From Parachlamydiales bacterium (lineage in GTDB: Bacteria; Chlamydiota; Chlamydiia; Chlamydiales; JAFEGQ01): 64,000 nucleotides of DNA. The stretch covers positions 5,690-69,689 of the forward strand of contig JBFWPF010000005.1 in the NCBI GenBank assembly GCA_050250135.1, read 5' to 3'. The notes under the pieces are model-generated. The model worked only from the letters and a program-made list of their open reading frames with translations, was not told the origin of the DNA and searched no databases. Made by a program: the position numbers and the translations under genes. How positions within the stretch are numbered: the stretch's first letter is position 1; every line of letters starts with the position of its first letter. Of the stretch, positions 40,297 through 45,990 are shown piece by piece.

Positions 40297-40985
40297 TCGC
40301 CATCATCCAGGCGCGGATGGGGTCGAGGCGCCTTCCGGGCAAGGTGCTGCGAGAGGTGGGGGGAGAGCCCCTGCTGGGCCACATGCTCAGCCGAGTGGCG
40401 AAGGCCCGCTCTCTCGATGGCTATGGGGTAGCGACAACCGATAGGGAGAGCGACGATCCGGTCGCAGCCTTTTGCGAGGAGCGGGGTGTTCCCTGCTATA
40501 GGGGCTCAGAAAAGGATGTCCTAAAGCGCTACGTGGGCGCGGCCGAGCACTTTGGGGCCGAGGCCATTGTCCGCCTAACAGCCGATTGCCCCCTCATCGA
40601 CCCCCTCATCCTCGACCAGGTCGCCACCTATTTTCAGGCCCACGATTTCGACTACGTCTCCAACACCCAGGACCGCTCCTACCCCCGAGGGATGGATGTT
40701 GAGGTCTTTTCTCGGGCGGCCCTCGAGCAGGCCGCCGAGGAGGCGGTCGACCCCTACGACCGGGAACATGTGACCTCCTATCTTTACAACAAGCAGGGGC
40801 GGTTTCGGGTGGGAAGGCTGGAGATGCGGCTGACCGTTGACCATGAGGCCGATCTCGAGTTGATCGGGCGACTTCTCGGAAAATTGGAGGGGCGCGATTA
40901 TCGGCTAGCCGATATTGTGAGCCTGTTGCAGACCCATCCCGAATGGGTCTCGATCAACGGCCATTTGATTCAGGAAGAGGGATGA
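40284..40985 (+). CDS. SpsF/PseF-like nonulosonate cytidylyltransferase family protein
   Basis: IIQARMGS.RLPGKVL, RGSE.DVL.RY, VRLTADCP, REHVT and RLTVD motifs. Confidence 0.88.
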   Translation: MGQLIAIIQARMGSRRLPGKVLREVGGEPLLGHMLSRVAKARSLDGYGVATTDRESDDPVAAFCEERGVPCYRGSEKDVLKRYVGAAEHFGAEAIVRLTADCPLIDPLILDQVATYFQAHDFDYVSNTQDRSYPRGMDVEVFSRAALEQAAEEAVDPYDREHVTSYLYNKQGRFRVGRLEMRLTVDHEADLELIGRLLGKLEGRDYRLADIVSLLQTHPEWVSINGHLIQEEG

Positions 40986-42001
40986 GCGTCTTTGTTATCG
41001 CCGAGGCGGGCAGCAACTGGCGGATGGGGGCCCCGAAACGGGATCTCCAGATGGCAAAAATGCTGATTGATATTGCAGCTGAGGCGGGGGCCGATGCGGT
41101 CAAATTTCAGGTCTTCCGAGCAGGGACCATCTACGCAGCCGGGTCGGGGGCCTGCTCCCACCTGAAGGAGAAGGGGGTAGGGGAGCCGATTGGGAAGGTC
41201 TTTGAGGACCTCGAAATGCCGGCCGAAATGATCCCCGAGCTAGCAGCCCATTGCCAAGAGAGGGGAGTAGCCTTTATGGCCTCAGCCTTCTCGGAGGAGA
41301 CCTTCCGCCTTGTCGACCCGTACGTTGCGCTCCACAAGATCGCCTCGCCCGAGCTCCATGACCTCTCCCTGCTGAAGCTGGCGGCCGGGTCGGGCAAGGC
41401 AACCCTCCTCTCAACTGGCCTCTCCACCCTGGAAGAGATCGGCTGGGCGGCAGGTCACTTCAAGGAAAATATTACCCTTCTGCAGTGTACCGTTCAGTAC
41501 CCGACCGATCCCGCCTCAGCTAACCTCCTCGCCATGCAGACCCTTGCCGAGACCTTTGGGCTCCCGGTCGGCCTGTCCGATCATACCCGCGATCCGATCA
41601 TTGCCCCGGTCTCAGCTGTGGCCTTGGGAGCCCAGGTGATCGAGAAGCACTTCACGGTCCATAACCGTCTGGTCGGCCCCGACCACAGTTGGGCGATAAC
41701 GGGTGAGGAGCTGGCCCAGATGGTGAGGGCGATCCGCCTTGCTGAGCAGATGAGGGGAGATGGAGAGAAGGCCATACTCCCAGTAGAGGAGCCGCTGCGC
41801 CGCTTCTCCCGCCGCTCGTTGCAAGCCCTTTGCCCCATCCCAAAAGGGACCCCCTTGCAATTAGGGGCCAATGTTGCCATTCTGCGGCCAGGTACACAGT
41901 CCCAGGGGCTCGCCCCCCGCCTCGCCTCAAAAATTGAGGGAAGGCGAGCCCTGCGCGATATTGAGGCGGGGTCTGGGATCACAGAGCAGGACATTGCATG
42001 A
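40982..42001 (+). CDS. N-acetylneuraminate synthase family (NeuB/SpsE/PseI) with C-terminal SAF domain
   Basis: FVIAEAG.N, GADAVKFQ, KIAS, LSTG, VGLSDHT, IEKHFT and LRPG motifs. Confidence 0.92.
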   Translation: MSVFVIAEAGSNWRMGAPKRDLQMAKMLIDIAAEAGADAVKFQVFRAGTIYAAGSGACSHLKEKGVGEPIGKVFEDLEMPAEMIPELAAHCQERGVAFMASAFSEETFRLVDPYVALHKIASPELHDLSLLKLAAGSGKATLLSTGLSTLEEIGWAAGHFKENITLLQCTVQYPTDPASANLLAMQTLAETFGLPVGLSDHTRDPIIAPVSAVALGAQVIEKHFTVHNRLVGPDHSWAITGEELAQMVRAIRLAEQMRGDGEKAILPVEEPLRRFSRRSLQALCPIPKGTPLQLGANVAILRPGTQSQGLAPRLASKIEGRRALRDIEAGSGITEQDIA

Positions 42002-42648
42002 GCCCAACCCCTTTGAAGGCCCTCTTTCTGGATTTTGACGGCACCATCGCCGATAGCCTTAACCTCCTCTACCGGGTCTATTGCGAATTTCTCAATCACT
42101 ACGGAAAAAAGGGGAGCCCCGAAGAGTTTGCTGAGCTCAACGGCCCCGCCATGTCGGAGGTCCTCCAGATCCTCAAGGAGCGGCACGGGATCAATGGAAA
42201 CGCAAGTGAATTATTTGGTGACTACCAGAAAAAGCTCCTCCAGATCTATGCCGAGCAGGTTGAGCCCTATGAGGGGACGATCCCCTTTCTCGATGAGATT
42301 GCCGACCGGAAGATTGCCTGTTACATCGTGACTTCCGCCTCGGCCCCCCTTGTGGAGGCCTTTCTCACCCGCCATGCCCTCACCCCCAAGATTCAAGAGG
42401 TGATCACCCCGCACGGCCTCTCCCGCTCCAAGCCCGATCCCGGTATCTACCTGCGGGCCTTGGCTAGGAGTGGCGCAAAGCCTACCGATGTGATTGCCGT
42501 CGAGGACTCCCATAACGGGATACTGGCGGCGACCAGGGCTGGTATTCCTACTGTGGCGATTGGGCATGAGAGCCGTCCTGACATCGCCACCTCTGGGGTG
42601 ATCTGTCACGCCGCCTGCTGGGAAGAGGTTCTTCCATTATGTCACTGA
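41998..42648 (+). CDS. HAD family phosphatase
   Basis: DFDGT..DS, VTS, KPDP and EDS.NG motifs. Confidence 0.9.
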   Translation: MSPTPLKALFLDFDGTIADSLNLLYRVYCEFLNHYGKKGSPEEFAELNGPAMSEVLQILKERHGINGNASELFGDYQKKLLQIYAEQVEPYEGTIPFLDEIADRKIACYIVTSASAPLVEAFLTRHALTPKIQEVITPHGLSRSKPDPGIYLRALARSGAKPTDVIAVEDSHNGILAATRAGIPTVAIGHESRPDIATSGVICHAACWEEVLPLCH

Positions 42649-43670
42649 GAATTCTCCTCCTCCCCCCTGGTACTCCGGCTATTCGGGGAACGGTGCGGAT
42701 GGTGCGGGAAAATCCCGATGAGTGCTCGGTTCTTGTGTACAGCGCTGATGCTGACCCCTCCCCCTTTTCCCTCTCCCTCTTCGACAACTACTTCAAGGTC
42801 CCCCCTCTCCACGACCCCGCTTACATTCCTGCGGTGCTTCACCTTTGTCAGCGGGAGGGGATAGACCTGATCCTGTTCCATCATGATGAAGAGACCGCTC
42901 TCTACATGGCCCATCAAGAGGCTTTTGAAGCCATCGGGACCCGCCTTGTGGCCTCCCCTCACCAGGCGGTCAAGACCGCCACCCACAAGGCCCATCTCTA
43001 TGAAGCTTTGGGGAGGGAGGGGATCCCCCTTCCGCGCTACGAGCTTGTCACCGCAGAAAACTGTGAGGAGGTGGCGGTGGCCTTGGGCTATCCCGACCAT
43101 GACCTGATCGTCAAGCCCCCGAACTGCTGGGGAGCAAACGGGGTCTACCAGCTTACCGCCCGCCCCCTTCCCTGGGATCAGCGCCTTCGCCTCCCGATGA
43201 TCACCCTCCCGCAGCTTAAGGCGAGCCTCGACCGCCCGGTCCTCATGCTCGAGTACTTGCCCGGTGCGGAGTACTCGGTCGATGCTTTTCTCGGCTCGCA
43301 AGTGGCCATTGCCCTTCCTCGGCGGCGTGACCGCATTGTGGGGGGGCTTGCGATTCAAACCACCCTAGAAGATCAACCTGAATTAGCAGAGCTTACCCTA
43401 AAGGCTGGCCGGGCGCTTGGCCTGCGCTATGTCTATGGGATGCAGTTTAAGTGTGACAGTGAGGGGAGGCCCCGCCTCCTCGAGTGCAATCCGCGGATTC
43501 AGGGGAGCTCCGTTGCCTCGTGGGGGAGTGGGCTCAATCTGATTTGGCTTGCGGTGCGCGAGGCTCTTGGCGAGCCTCCCGCCGACCTTCCCCGCCCCCT
43601 TCATGGGGCGACCTACGCCCGCCATTGGGGAGGAGTTGTCACCGCCGGAGACCGCTCCTGGGAGGTTTAA
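42639..43670 (+). CDS. ATP-grasp protein (stand-alone CarB-like)
   Basis: IVKP...GA.G, EYLPGAEYSVD and LECNPR..G motifs. Confidence 0.85.
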   Translation: MSLRILLLPPGTPAIRGTVRMVRENPDECSVLVYSADADPSPFSLSLFDNYFKVPPLHDPAYIPAVLHLCQREGIDLILFHHDEETALYMAHQEAFEAIGTRLVASPHQAVKTATHKAHLYEALGREGIPLPRYELVTAENCEEVAVALGYPDHDLIVKPPNCWGANGVYQLTARPLPWDQRLRLPMITLPQLKASLDRPVLMLEYLPGAEYSVDAFLGSQVAIALPRRRDRIVGGLAIQTTLEDQPELAELTLKAGRALGLRYVYGMQFKCDSEGRPRLLECNPRIQGSSVASWGSGLNLIWLAVREALGEPPADLPRPLHGATYARHWGGVVTAGDRSWEV

Positions 43671-43832
43671 CACCTGATAGCGATCTATCGTTCTGAGGGG
43701 GCGGCAGGGGGTGTTCGGATGGCGCACATCGCGACGAGGCCGGGTTTGTAAACCCGGGTAAGGAGGGATGGGCTCCAGATGACCGCCTACTGTCGATGCC
43801 CTCAGAACGATAGGTCGCAATCAGGGGTTTAA
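43666..43832. repeat. Palindromic element, copy 4 (167 bp, inverted relative to copy 3)
   Basis: Arms CCTGATAGCGATCTATCGTTCTGAGGG/CCCTCAGAACGATAGGTCGCAATCAGG; centre GACGA-..CCGGGTTT-gt-AAACCCGG-..AGGAG. Confidence 0.92.
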
Positions 43833-43838
43833 TCCCTT

Positions 43839-44330
43839 TTAGAAACCAACGCCAAAGGTAAGGGTAGCGGCGGGCTGTCGGTAGATCACCGTTGGGCTAC
43901 CCGTTGGGATAGCGGGCTGATGGATCCCTGCCTCGACAAAGGCCAGGACCCGGGTGTGGGTGATCAAGGCATACCCGATTACCCCCTCGCCAAAGAGGCC
44001 AACAAAGTTATGCCCCTCGTTCTTCAGCCGGCCATAGCCGAGTCCAAGCCCCCCGTAGAGGCTGTGCTTCCATCCGGGGGTGAGGAAGAAGAGAAAGAGC
44101 CCCTTACCAAGGATCAGGTGGTCGCTTCCTGAGTGTTCGATGTAGTCGACGCTCAGGTCGACGCCGCTATGGCCGGTAACCACCCGGATCCCCCCTCCAG
44201 CGGCTACCCCGGGATCGGTGTGGGGAGCCTCAAGTGTGCCCGCCCCCAATTTTCCGTACCGGTAGCTGAACCAATTTTCGTCAGCAAAGCTAGCTGTGGT
44301 CAGAGCGAGGAGGAGGAGGAGCTTTTTCAT
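43839..44330 (-). CDS. Small outer-membrane beta-barrel-like protein
   Basis: Signal peptide MKKLLLLLALTTASFA; Gly/aromatic alternating strands (YGGLGLGYG); terminal GVGF. Confidence 0.72.
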   Translation of the reverse strand: MKKLLLLLALTTASFADENWFSYRYGKLGAGTLEAPHTDPGVAAGGGIRVVTGHSGVDLSVDYIEHSGSDHLILGKGLFLFFLTPGWKHSLYGGLGLGYGRLKNEGHNFVGLFGEGVIGYALITHTRVLAFVEAGIHQPAIPTGSPTVIYRQPAATLTFGVGF

Positions 44331-45010
44331 CAAAAACCTATTCCGAGTTCAAGGGTTATCGGGAGGAGTATACCATTTTCCCGGAAACAGGGAAGCTTTG
44401 CGTCGAGCTCGACGAAGAAAAGTCGCACGGCCCCCTTTTCCCATCTCCATTGGAGGCCACCAGCGCAGTTAATGAGAGCGCCGCTGAACCGATCGGCCAC
44501 CGTTCCCTTGAGCATAAAACCCCCAATCCCGGCGCCGAGGTAGGGGGTGCAGCGGTAGTGGGGTGTCAGGTAGAGAAGCCCCATCCCCCGTCCGTAGAGG
44601 AGGGTGAGCTGTTCGACACTTTGGTCCCCAAAGGCCTGGTTGTGGTGAAGTATGCCCGCCGACAGATCCCAGCCGAAACACCCCCCTTTGGCGCTGCGGA
44701 CCCCAAGGCCAGCGGAGATCACCGGATCGAGCGCCTCCGGGTGGAAGGAGAGGGTCCCGCCGCCCCCTTTTACGTAGGCAAAGCGCCCCTCTCCCCATGC
44801 GAGAGGAGAGGCCAGGAGAAAGAGGGCTACAAGGCACGCCCTTAAAAAGTTATAGCGTCGCCCTCTTGCTGCATCGGCCACCTTGTTGATCTCGCTCCTC
44901 ACCCATAGCGCTTTGGCTATGGGCTTCGTCGCGATTTCAATAATCTGGCTCGATTCGCTAAGAGGCCGCCTGCTATAACTTTTTGAGGACGTACCTAACA
45001 AGTACTTCAT
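44330..45010 (-). CDS. Outer-membrane beta-barrel-like paralog carrying an in-frame palindromic insert
   Basis: PYLGAGIGG and terminal GIGF; about 52 aa encoded by palindrome copy 5 lie between MKYLLG and CLVALFLLASPLAWG. Confidence 0.72.
   Translation of the reverse strand: MKYLLGTSSKSYSRRPLSESSQIIEIATKPIAKALWVRSEINKVADAARGRRYNFLRACLVALFLLASPLAWGEGRFAYVKGGGGTLSFHPEALDPVISAGLGVRSAKGGCFGWDLSAGILHHNQAFGDQSVEQLTLLYGRGMGLLYLTPHYRCTPYLGAGIGGFMLKGTVADRFSGALINCAGGLQWRWEKGAVRLFFVELDAKLPCFRENGILLPITLELGIGF
44835..44993. repeat. Palindromic element, copy 5 (159 bp, inside a CDS)
   Basis: Arms ACGCCCTTAAAAAGTTATAGC/GCTATAACTTTTTGAGGACGT; centre CTCCTC-aCCCATAGC-gctttg-GCTATGGG-ctTCGTC. Confidence 0.9.
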
Positions 45011-45087
45011 CGGGCTACCTTGGCAAACTAAAGGGAAACAACGTTAGCCCTAGCGACGCATAATGTCAACCGAGCCATAATGGGGGG

Positions 45088-45990
45088 ATGAAGTCGGCCG
45101 ACCCGAATGCCTTTCTCGCTCTCAAGGAGTTGCCCCCCCTGACTCTGATCACGGGGGGCTCGCCCTATGACCGCGAGGGGCTGTTGCGCAAACAGGGGCT
45201 CTCCGGCGGCCTCTCATGCGATGAGTTGAGCCCTAAGCGGCTGGCCGAAGAGCTCTCGAGCGGCTCTCTATTTTCCCAAAGAAGAACCCTCCTCCTGCGC
45301 CGCCTCTCCCACCTCAGCGAGGAGGGGAGTGGGCTGCTCGTGACCTACTGCGAGCGGCCAGGCCCCGAGCTGCGGGTGGTGGCTGAGGGGGAGAGCTGCC
45401 CGGCGGGCCTTGCGGCAAGCGCGGGCCTTCACCTCGACCTAGGAAAGCTCCCCCCTTGGGAGGAGGAGCGGGCCGTTGTCAGCTGGCTACAGAAGGAGGG
45501 GAACCTGCCCCCTCAACTGGCGGCTCTTTTGGTCGAGCGGGCCTCTCCTGACAAGGAGCGCCTCGCCCTCGAACTCGAAAAGCTCCGCCTCCACGGGGGC
45601 CCCGTTACCCGCGAGCTGATCGAGGCTCTCGTCCCCGCCAGCCCCCACGGGTCGGTTTGGGAGGTGGGGCGGGCGATCCTCACCCGCGATCCGAAGCGGG
45701 CAGCTGCTCTACTAGAGGCGATGGGGGAGGGTATCGGTCTCTTTGGGACGCTCGCTGCGCTGAGGAGTCAGTTTGAGACCCACCTCTTAGCCCTCGAAGG
45801 GGGCCCTGCCGATCTCCCCAAGCTAAAGGGGCGGCAGCTGGAGCGGACGGTGGAGCTGGCCAGGCGGTATGGGGGCCCCTCATTGCGGCAGGGGCTCGTT
45901 GCGATCGGCCGGTTAGAGGGGGAGGCCAAGAGGCGGGCGCTCTCTGAGGAGGCCGCCCTCCTCCAGCTCGTTACCGCTCTTGCATCCTGA
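45088..45990 (+). CDS. holA: DNA polymerase III delta subunit-like
   Basis: SGSLFS.R.L, L..ELEKL..H..PVT..I..LV and VW.....I pattern; chlamydial position downstream of pepA. Confidence 0.7.
   Translation: MKSADPNAFLALKELPPLTLITGGSPYDREGLLRKQGLSGGLSCDELSPKRLAEELSSGSLFSQRRTLLLRRLSHLSEEGSGLLVTYCERPGPELRVVAEGESCPAGLAASAGLHLDLGKLPPWEEERAVVSWLQKEGNLPPQLAALLVERASPDKERLALELEKLRLHGGPVTRELIEALVPASPHGSVWEVGRAILTRDPKRAAALLEAMGEGIGLFGTLAALRSQFETHLLALEGGPADLPKLKGRQLERTVELARRYGGPSLRQGLVAIGRLEGEAKRRALSEEAALLQLVTALAS

Follow-up and report, generated by a model that had tools for sequence, protein, structure and literature searches.

A 161-nt palindromic element, resembling a miniature inverted-repeat transposable element (MITE), lies in frame inside the export leader of a gene for a small putative outer-membrane protein (OMP) in a Parachlamydiales bacterium. 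The gene is the open reading frame (ORF) at 44330-45010, minus strand, of a 64,000-nt stretch of DNA (the window; G000:C5:5690-69689), taken from an assembly of 1.70 Mb in 45 contigs with 58% G+C and 91% completeness. We consider it probable that the element was inserted with a duplication of its target, that its frame was compensated by a one-base deletion, and that the resulting 73-residue leader is most likely exported and removed, leaving the mature protein unchanged.

The palindrome within the ORF is real and far beyond chance. Its outer arms (44832-44856 and 44972-44996, 25 nt, 88% complementary) are accompanied by inner arms, and the RNA of 44820-45010 (minus strand) is predicted to fold into one long hairpin of -93.3 kcal/mol; across 200 dinucleotide shuffles the mean is -54.6 kcal/mol (sd 4.1, z = -9.45), and none of the 200 folds as well. 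An Rfam scan of the window returns one tRNA only and no match for the palindrome. A sequence-only reading of this DNA, whose quoted translation is identical to ours, had equated the palindrome with an insert at 44835-44993; the insert is present, and an alignment of 14 copies sets its extent at 44834-44994. The ORF, the element and its flanks are as follows, in window coordinates.

44330 to 45010, minus strand: ORF of 226 codons plus stop, a leader with insert followed by a small putative outer-membrane beta-barrel (ORF list, language-model features, paralogue).
44834 to 44994, minus strand: MITE-like palindromic element of family A, 161 nt, with 95% identity to the family majority sequence (copy alignment, profile, hairpin).
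44972 to 44994, minus strand: 5' terminal inverted repeat, 23 nt (inverted-repeat and terminal-motif analysis).
44834 to 44856, minus strand: 3' terminal inverted repeat, 23 nt (inverted-repeat and terminal-motif analysis).
44995 to 45002, minus strand: upstream copy of the 8-bp target-site duplication, CTTGTTAG (flank comparison).
44827 to 44833, minus strand: downstream copy of the target duplication, CTTGTAG, one T short, which puts the insert in frame (flank comparison).

By its size, inverted repeats, target duplication and copy number, family A is a non-autonomous MITE-like transposon. A sequence search with the window element yields 34 matches in the 1.70-Mb genome, and an nhmmer profile built from the 14 aligned copies finds 14 full-length loci and 12 shorter or more divergent ones, on 19 contigs. 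The copies share the ends GTACG...CGTAC and 23-nt terminal inverted repeats; they have 80-96% identity to the majority sequence, and their length (161 nt in 8 of the 14) leaves no room for a transposase. The 23-nt terminal motif occurs 30 times at up to 5 mismatches, and 29 of these occurrences terminate listed copies; the loose ends of other copies in contigs from sequencing runs stop at 44836 and 44994. Across the 13 copies with two ends, the flanking 8-mers agree at 8 of 8 positions in three copies, 7 of 8 in three, 6 of 8 in two, 5 of 8 in two, 4 of 8 in two and 2 of 8 in one, where chance would give about 2 of 8; these matches are an 8-bp target-site duplication that decays with age. A TA duplication within a GTAC target, in the style of IS630, was considered and is ruled out by the observed 8-bp duplications. 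Nowhere in the 45 contigs are two terminal motifs spaced 1-2 kb from each other, as those of a parent insertion sequence would be, in an assembly that is 91% complete and where repeats often go unassembled. The element is found in none of 60 related genomes (one has a 32-nt match, G029), and a two-anchor pattern finds nothing in metagenome contigs; 14 single 17-mer matches in species genomes are short chance matches of 20-49 nt according to the profile.

The flanks of the window copy record both the insertion and its repair. CTTGTTAG and CTTGTAG agree at 7 of 7 positions once one T is left out, and the added coding sequence amounts to 161 + 8 - 1 = 168 nt, or 56 codons. An intact family-A insertion of 169 nt would be frame-shifting and would leave the 122-aa ORF 44469-44837 as the downstream frame; for this reason we take the missing T as a likely compensating deletion, suggestive of a gene that was kept. 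Removing the 168 nt by coordinates yields 171 codons in frame with the same ATG, namely a 17-residue leader, MKYLLALFLLASPLAWG, and the same mature sequence. Judged by its sequence, MKYLLALFLLASPLAWG is a textbook n-h-c signal peptide. Because its ATG stays in frame with this canonical leader, the reconstruction identifies position 45010 as the start before insertion and places the element between codons 5 and 6. No orthologue was found in the searches described below, and the internal reconstruction therefore stands in for a comparison with an ortholog that lacks the insert. The sequence-only reading had foreseen that a canonical leader would return upon removal of 52-53 codons; it does return, at a true count of 56, but the predicted form MKYLLG(C)LVALF... 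gives way to MKYLLALFLLASPLAWG. Its mechanism is partly supported, in outline, and its anatomy is refined by the 8-bp duplication, the compensating loss of 1 nt and the rebuilding of the hydrophobic core by the target copy.

The present leader and its candidate start codons comprise the following features.

45008 to 45010, minus strand: ATG, the start before insertion and most likely the present one, in frame with the 17-residue leader after removal and with AAGG 7 nt upstream.
45018 to 45021, minus strand: Shine-Dalgarno-like AAGG, read from the sequence.
44810 to 44839, minus strand: hydrophobic core ACLVALFLLA, its first residues coming from the element end and the duplicated target, with a Kyte-Doolittle 9-residue maximum of 3.14 at residue 58.
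44792 to 44800, minus strand: A-W-G, predicted signal-peptidase I site with the cut after G73 (-3/-1 rule on the sequence).
44900 to 44902, minus strand: in-frame GTG, codon 37, where a public 190-aa gene call starts.
44879 to 44881, minus strand: in-frame GTG, codon 44, preceded by GGAG at 14-17 nt; translation might begin here, which would make the leader 30 residues long.

The sequence of this leader has the features of a Sec-type signal peptide, with the n-region RGRRYNFLRA, the core ACLVALFLLA and A-W-G before E. As the sequence-only reading had noted, the insert is stop-free and basic at its end. It contains 11 K/R residues to 4 D/E and has the terminus ...RGRRYNFLRA ahead of the core. 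The element's last base and the duplicated target encode C-L-V in place of the displaced Y-L-L, and the Kyte-Doolittle maximum is 3.14 at ACLVALFLL now, compared with 2.73 at LLALFLLAS when the insert is removed. The c-region S-P-L-A-W-G and all downstream residues are unaltered by the insertion. The -3/-1 rule is the established basis for placing a signal-peptidase I site; because the core and the A-W-G site survive, the mature protein is predicted to be unchanged, and it would be identical to the one made before insertion if the cut still falls after G73. Two other export routes were considered. A lipoprotein is contradicted by L-R-A-C, which carries R at -2, contrary to the lipobox rule as applied by eye; a Tat substrate is contradicted by the spacing of RRYNFL, which is off by one, by a search that found no TatC in the 91%-complete genome, and by the established use of Sec by beta-barrel proteins.

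The start at 45010, with read-through of the element, is rated the most likely one from the sequence. Shine-Dalgarno-like 4-mers such as its AAGG precede 39% of 264 well-bounded ATG starts, compared with 19% in a control window inside genes. No sigma-70-like promoter is found in 43700-45400, where the expectation is itself small (0.5). In the course of events that we favor, the gene for a small outer-membrane beta-barrel would have received a MITE-like element in its Sec-type leader, between codons 5 and 6, with 8 bp of target duplicated, and the loss of one T from the downstream target copy would have allowed 56 codons to be read through in the only orientation and frame of this element copy that is free of stops. 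The original ATG, with its Shine-Dalgarno-like AAGG, would remain in place; the element would supply a long basic stretch ending in RGRRYNFLRA; and its end, together with the duplicated target, would rebuild the start of the core (CLV for YLL). With the rest of the core and the A-W-G site untouched, the 73-residue leader would still be exported and removed, and an unchanged mature protein would explain the persistence of the insertion in a family that is otherwise intergenic. Selection of the missing T, use of 45010 as the start, and export and cleavage of the leader are what we infer on top of the observed anatomy.

The frame that is read is stop-free in 5 of the 14 aligned copies; in the window copy, each of the remaining five frames contains 2-4 stops. 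Only one of 24 family-A loci examined falls in a long open frame, and it is this one (237 aa from stop to stop, the next longest being 126). According to a crude gene map based on codon usage, the other loci are intergenic or overlap the first or last few dozen nucleotides of a neighboring ORF, up to about 60 nt, and their positions between genes are inconsistent.

The interrupted gene is a putative small outer-membrane beta-barrel, as far as its sequence indicates. Directly downstream lies a paralogue.

43839 to 44333, minus strand: paralogous small OMP gene, its ATG overlapping the upstream gene's stop (TGATG), with a sub-threshold Pfam OMP_b-brl match.

The paralogue has the short, ordinary leader that the sequence-only reading ascribed to it, shares 30% identity with the host protein over 82 residues (pairwise E 4e-6), and matches Pfam OMP_b-brl (PF13505) at E 0.005 and 17.5 bits, below the 28.7 cut-off. 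Language-model features place the host protein at 0.97 to OMP_b-brl clusters of 166-184 residues, in 17 of 30 matches, and both C-termini (...LELGIGF in the host, ...LTFGVGF in the paralogue) show alternating hydrophobic residues ending in G-x-G-F. The host protein itself has no Pfam or NCBIfam match, with none to OMP_b-brl even at E <= 10, and no match among PDB sequences at E <= 10. It appears from the sequence databases to be an orphan: there is no orthologue in 40 relatives and no homologue in metagenome contigs, a search of 5.8 billion clustered proteins returns only itself, and one of 1.84 billion representatives returns itself and two matches that involve just short repeated segments within long proteins. 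The stop of the host gene overlaps the ATG of the paralogue (TGATG, window 44328-44334); because of this overlap, the two genes are probably a translationally coupled two-gene operon.

Several observations weigh against the favored course of events. The 58-residue n-region of the leader greatly exceeds the usual length. In the public gene call the protein begins not at 45010 but at the GTG of codon 37, inside the element; this start is likely a mis-annotation caused by the insert. In the mRNA, a -93 kcal/mol hairpin would begin 16 nt downstream of the ATG, and with RNase III encoded in the genome (238 bits, over the cut-off) the transcript may be cut or poorly translated; cleavage of the stem could possibly lower expression or free an internal start. 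The intact ORF is weak evidence of function, since in simulations of neutral decay (a 504-nt frame at 2-5% divergence) the frame stays stop-free with P 0.47-0.74, or with P 0.04-0.27 when indels are included at an assumed 0.1 per substitution. None of the listed runs that hold the sequence is recorded as RNA. The beta-barrel identity comes without a Pfam match for the host protein, and its single-sequence AlphaFold model is uninformative (pLDDT, the predicted local distance difference test score, 33.5). Finally, neither an orthologue nor an empty-site allele for comparison is found among relatives, protein clusters, or run and metagenome contigs.

These observations leave room for other accounts of the gene's present state. 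Translation may now start inside the element, at the GTG of codon 44 or 37, such that the element has donated both a start and a basic n-region to a 30- or 37-residue leader and the old ATG is unused or yields only a short-lived product. From codon 44 the n-region would have a net charge of +3 ahead of the same core and cleavage site, GGAG stands upstream, and the position is ATG in 7 and GTG in 4 of the 14 aligned copies; codon 37 is the start of the public call, and RNase III could cut the stem and part the old ATG from the remainder. However, the predicted fold pairs both GTGs in the 3' arm of the hairpin, GGAG, at 14-17 nt upstream, is widely spaced from codon 44, codon 37 has no Shine-Dalgarno-like motif in the 20 nt upstream, the old ATG retains its AAGG at 7 nt, and on the crude gene map no other family-A copy is seen to donate a start to a neighboring gene; overall, we regard an internal start as unlikely. 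That the insertion inactivated the gene, leaving a young pseudogene whose open frame and missing T are due to chance, is decidedly unlikely. A neutral frame of this length is often stop-free at low divergence, as the simulations above indicate, the ORF has a codon-usage score of 0.18 per codon where its neighbors have 0.36, no orthologue was found that would give a ratio of nonsynonymous to synonymous substitution rates (dN/dS), and none of the listed runs is on record as RNA. But decay by chance has to account for an insertion in the single stop-free orientation and frame of six, for a frameshift that the duplication's one visible indel precisely offsets, for a C-terminal strand ending in F, a hydrophobic core and a cleavage site that are all intact, and for the avoidance of long frames by all the other family-A loci examined; a kept frame would presumably also keep the coupling to the paralogue, whose ATG the stop overlaps.

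The hairpin may instead have been kept as a regulator, either as an RNase III target or as a translational brake on the two-gene OMP operon, rather than being a tolerated parasite. The stem is very stable and stands directly after the start codon, and in Neisseria, RNase III, an enzyme also present here, cuts transcribed Correia elements at their inverted repeats, according to a review of bacterial MITEs (PMC10969869). Little probability attaches to this account: no observation here indicates regulation, most other copies are intergenic and inconsistently positioned, and the window copy, at 95% identity, is not specially conserved within a family range of 80-96%. The remaining concern is the assembly, in which a copy of the repeat could wrongly join two unrelated flanks of a metagenome-assembled contig. 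The runs that hold the sequence are labelled landfill metagenome, and no single Logan contig spans the element; two contigs of run X1 (records 2 and 7) enter it from either flank, each without a single difference, and have 7 nt in common at the hairpin loop. Each junction, however, lies within a contig, at similar depths of 18.8 and 25.7, and because the flanks carry the same 8-bp target and, when joined, restore a continuous canonical leader in frame, as a chimera of unrelated flanks would not, they very likely belong together; a misjoin has next to no probability. The summed depth in the source run is 129-459 over the element compared with 18.8 in the gene flank, as expected for a multi-copy repeat. 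A joint that skips the element is absent from the contigs of runs X1-X3, which come from one study, drop rare variants and include none that spans the element.

A second palindromic family (family B) is found in genes, and its sequences point to RPE-like read-through, in the manner of the Rickettsia palindromic elements (RPEs), as a habit of this genome. One copy stands next to the operon.

43666 to 43832, strand unspecified: family-B copy of 157 nt between two TTTAA target copies, immediately 3' of the paralogue and at high summed depth in run contigs.

Genome-wide there are 67 family-B loci, 56 of them at least 140 nt long (for example G000:C4:69305-69471, C22:27829-27995 and C11:50148-50276). 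The length is 157 nt in 52 of these 56 copies, and the 5-bp duplication, of the form TNNNA, is perfect in 36, matches at 4 of 5 positions in 12 and at 3 or fewer in 8. Each insertion adds 157 + 5 = 162 nt, or 54 codons, and one of the six frames of the majority sequence is stop-free. Family B therefore keeps the frame by arithmetic and is found in genes, whereas family A disrupts it and occurs in a gene once, accompanied by a repair. Of the 67 family-B loci, 12 fall in open frames of at least 150 aa, and a Pfam family is recognized in 7 of the 10 such frames submitted. The match of a KsgA/RsmA homologue to Pfam RrnaAD (E 1.4e-50) spans a family-B insert, located just before the conserved VVA-x-LPY stretch; aligned with PDB 6ifs_A, the protein is split at query residues 157/220 and chain residues 107/121, which leaves an insert of about 50 residues. 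Likewise, the Pfam match of a LysE-type transporter spans a family-B copy of 43 residues, and a DnaX homologue carries its insert after domain III. Less certain cases are an ankyrin protein and an IS3-type transposase, with inserts after their recognized domains, and a Cof-type HAD protein and an FMN_bind protein, with inserts before the domain that may not be translated. The transposase frame (G000:C16:8196-9224; rve, HTH_21) has its in-frame copy near the C-terminus. Flank codon usage indicates coding sequence on either side for only 2 of the 56 full-length copies.

The two families also meet one another. Family B is inserted in the TTAAA inside the family-A terminal inverted repeat at G000:C1:44612-44926, C14:12253-12564, C38:7785-8029 and C10:23864-23935, and it is this choice of target that produces the A/B chimeras at C1, C14 and C38. 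Beyond this genome, one genome from a different family of the order (G055) contains elements of about 392 nt with family-B-like inverted ends, at L065:1506-1897 and L067:1506-1896; distant lineages of the order may therefore depend on one transposition machinery.

The assignment of the host to the chlamydiae, made by the sequence-only reading, fits the rest of the genome. There are four TLC ATP/ADP translocase genes (G000: C10:19059-20513, C3:11937-13391, C20:13186-14646 and C19:16883-18211), compared with none in 14 control genomes; they indicate an obligate intracellular life. A weak OmcB-type match (Chlam_OMP6; 27.5 bits, below the 34.1 cut-off) is likewise found in none of the 14 controls, and the order to which the genome belongs comprises at least 47 families with genomes of 0.8-3.6 Mb. 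The TLC and OmcB-type markers separate the host from Rickettsiales weakly.

Short palindromic repeats in genes have precedents. Delihas, in 2007, reportedly described intragenic ERIC copies with open frames. The Correia elements of Neisseria duplicate TA, whereas here family A duplicates 8 bp of target and family B 5 bp of the form TNNNA. In other respects Correia, ERIC, RUP and Nezha elements resemble the present families, being short, non-autonomous and present in many copies, with inverted repeats, target duplications and strong RNA hairpins, as PMC10969869 sets out. Bacterial MITEs and their in-frame read-through are established, and the present case works in the same way; the review cites intragenic ERIC, BOX and Anabaena elements, and makes no mention of insertion into a signal peptide ('signal peptide' has 0 occurrences). 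The extreme case of in-frame palindromic read-through is that of the RPEs (Ogata et al. 2000, 2002, via PMC10969869), palindromic repeats some 150 bp long whose host is an obligate intracellular bacterium and which add a conserved peptide to its proteins, housekeeping enzymes included; in R. conorii, nearly half of the RPEs of three families lie in genes. The in-frame read-through of a mobile palindrome is a known kind of event, as in Rickettsia, here in a new lineage and in an export leader. Searches of open-access full text yield no relevant description of such elements in chlamydiae, which does not prove their absence from the literature.

The sequence-only reading had proposed an RPE-style creation of new protein sequence in a chlamydia. 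Much of this stands: the palindrome is a dispersed mobile repeat with inverted repeats and target duplications, it is in frame in what was a canonical leader, and family B occurs in KsgA-, LysE- and DnaX-like genes. The habit of family A, however, is not RPE-like; its inverted repeats and 8-bp target duplications are clear, its insertions disrupt the frame in the absence of compensation, and it is intragenic at 1 of 24 loci examined. The likeness is carried by family B, in the homologues of KsgA, LysE and DnaX, and there by a minority of loci (12 of 67), among which three are firm in-frame cases and at most about seven are candidates, compared with the nearly half reported for R. conorii in PMC10969869. 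The host here is chlamydia-like, and the likeness to RPEs described here is one of habit.

These results bear on how long signal peptides may arise. The leader, predicted to be cleaved, would be a clean natural example of a permissive landing site, because the duplicated target rebuilds the core and the one-base deletion repairs the frame, and it suggests a plausible route to long signal peptides. The extended signal peptide region (ESPR) of autotransporters and two-partner secretion proteins is an N-terminal extension before an ordinary n-h-c leader, which is still handled by Sec and cleaved. The present leader resembles it as a long leader whose extension precedes an ordinary signal peptide, and the ESPR shows that long leaders can work; in contrast to that conserved domain, the extension here is recent, transposon-derived sequence, and a search with Pfam models, ESPR included, recovers no family at E <= 0.1 for the 226-aa protein. 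There is also a warning for annotation, as a public gene call begins inside a transposon and element-derived peptides are embedded in conserved enzymes such as KsgA.

A bolder proposal is that the lineage constitutes an independent second 'Rickettsia case', in which palindromic MITEs are routinely written into proteins as portable coding cassettes. If so, family B would add exactly 54 stop-free codons at each landing site; family A, with its outward Shine-Dalgarno-like motif, ATG/GTG and basic stretch, could create or remodel translation starts and signal-peptide n-regions; and the OMP leader would be the origin of an extended signal peptide caught in the act. We consider this doubtful. The data show no design: one unit length in three is divisible by three by chance, and at this G+C content it is common for one of six frames to be open.

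Beyond the paralogue and the family-B copy, window positions 40943-43670 encode three proteins in a row. One is a NeuB/PseI-like sialic/pseudaminic acid synthase, with a match of E 3e-78 that stays under the equivalog cut-off; the others are a HAD phosphatase and an ATP-grasp protein. Together they form a possible nonulosonic-acid surface-sugar cluster, which would be unusual for a chlamydia-like genome.

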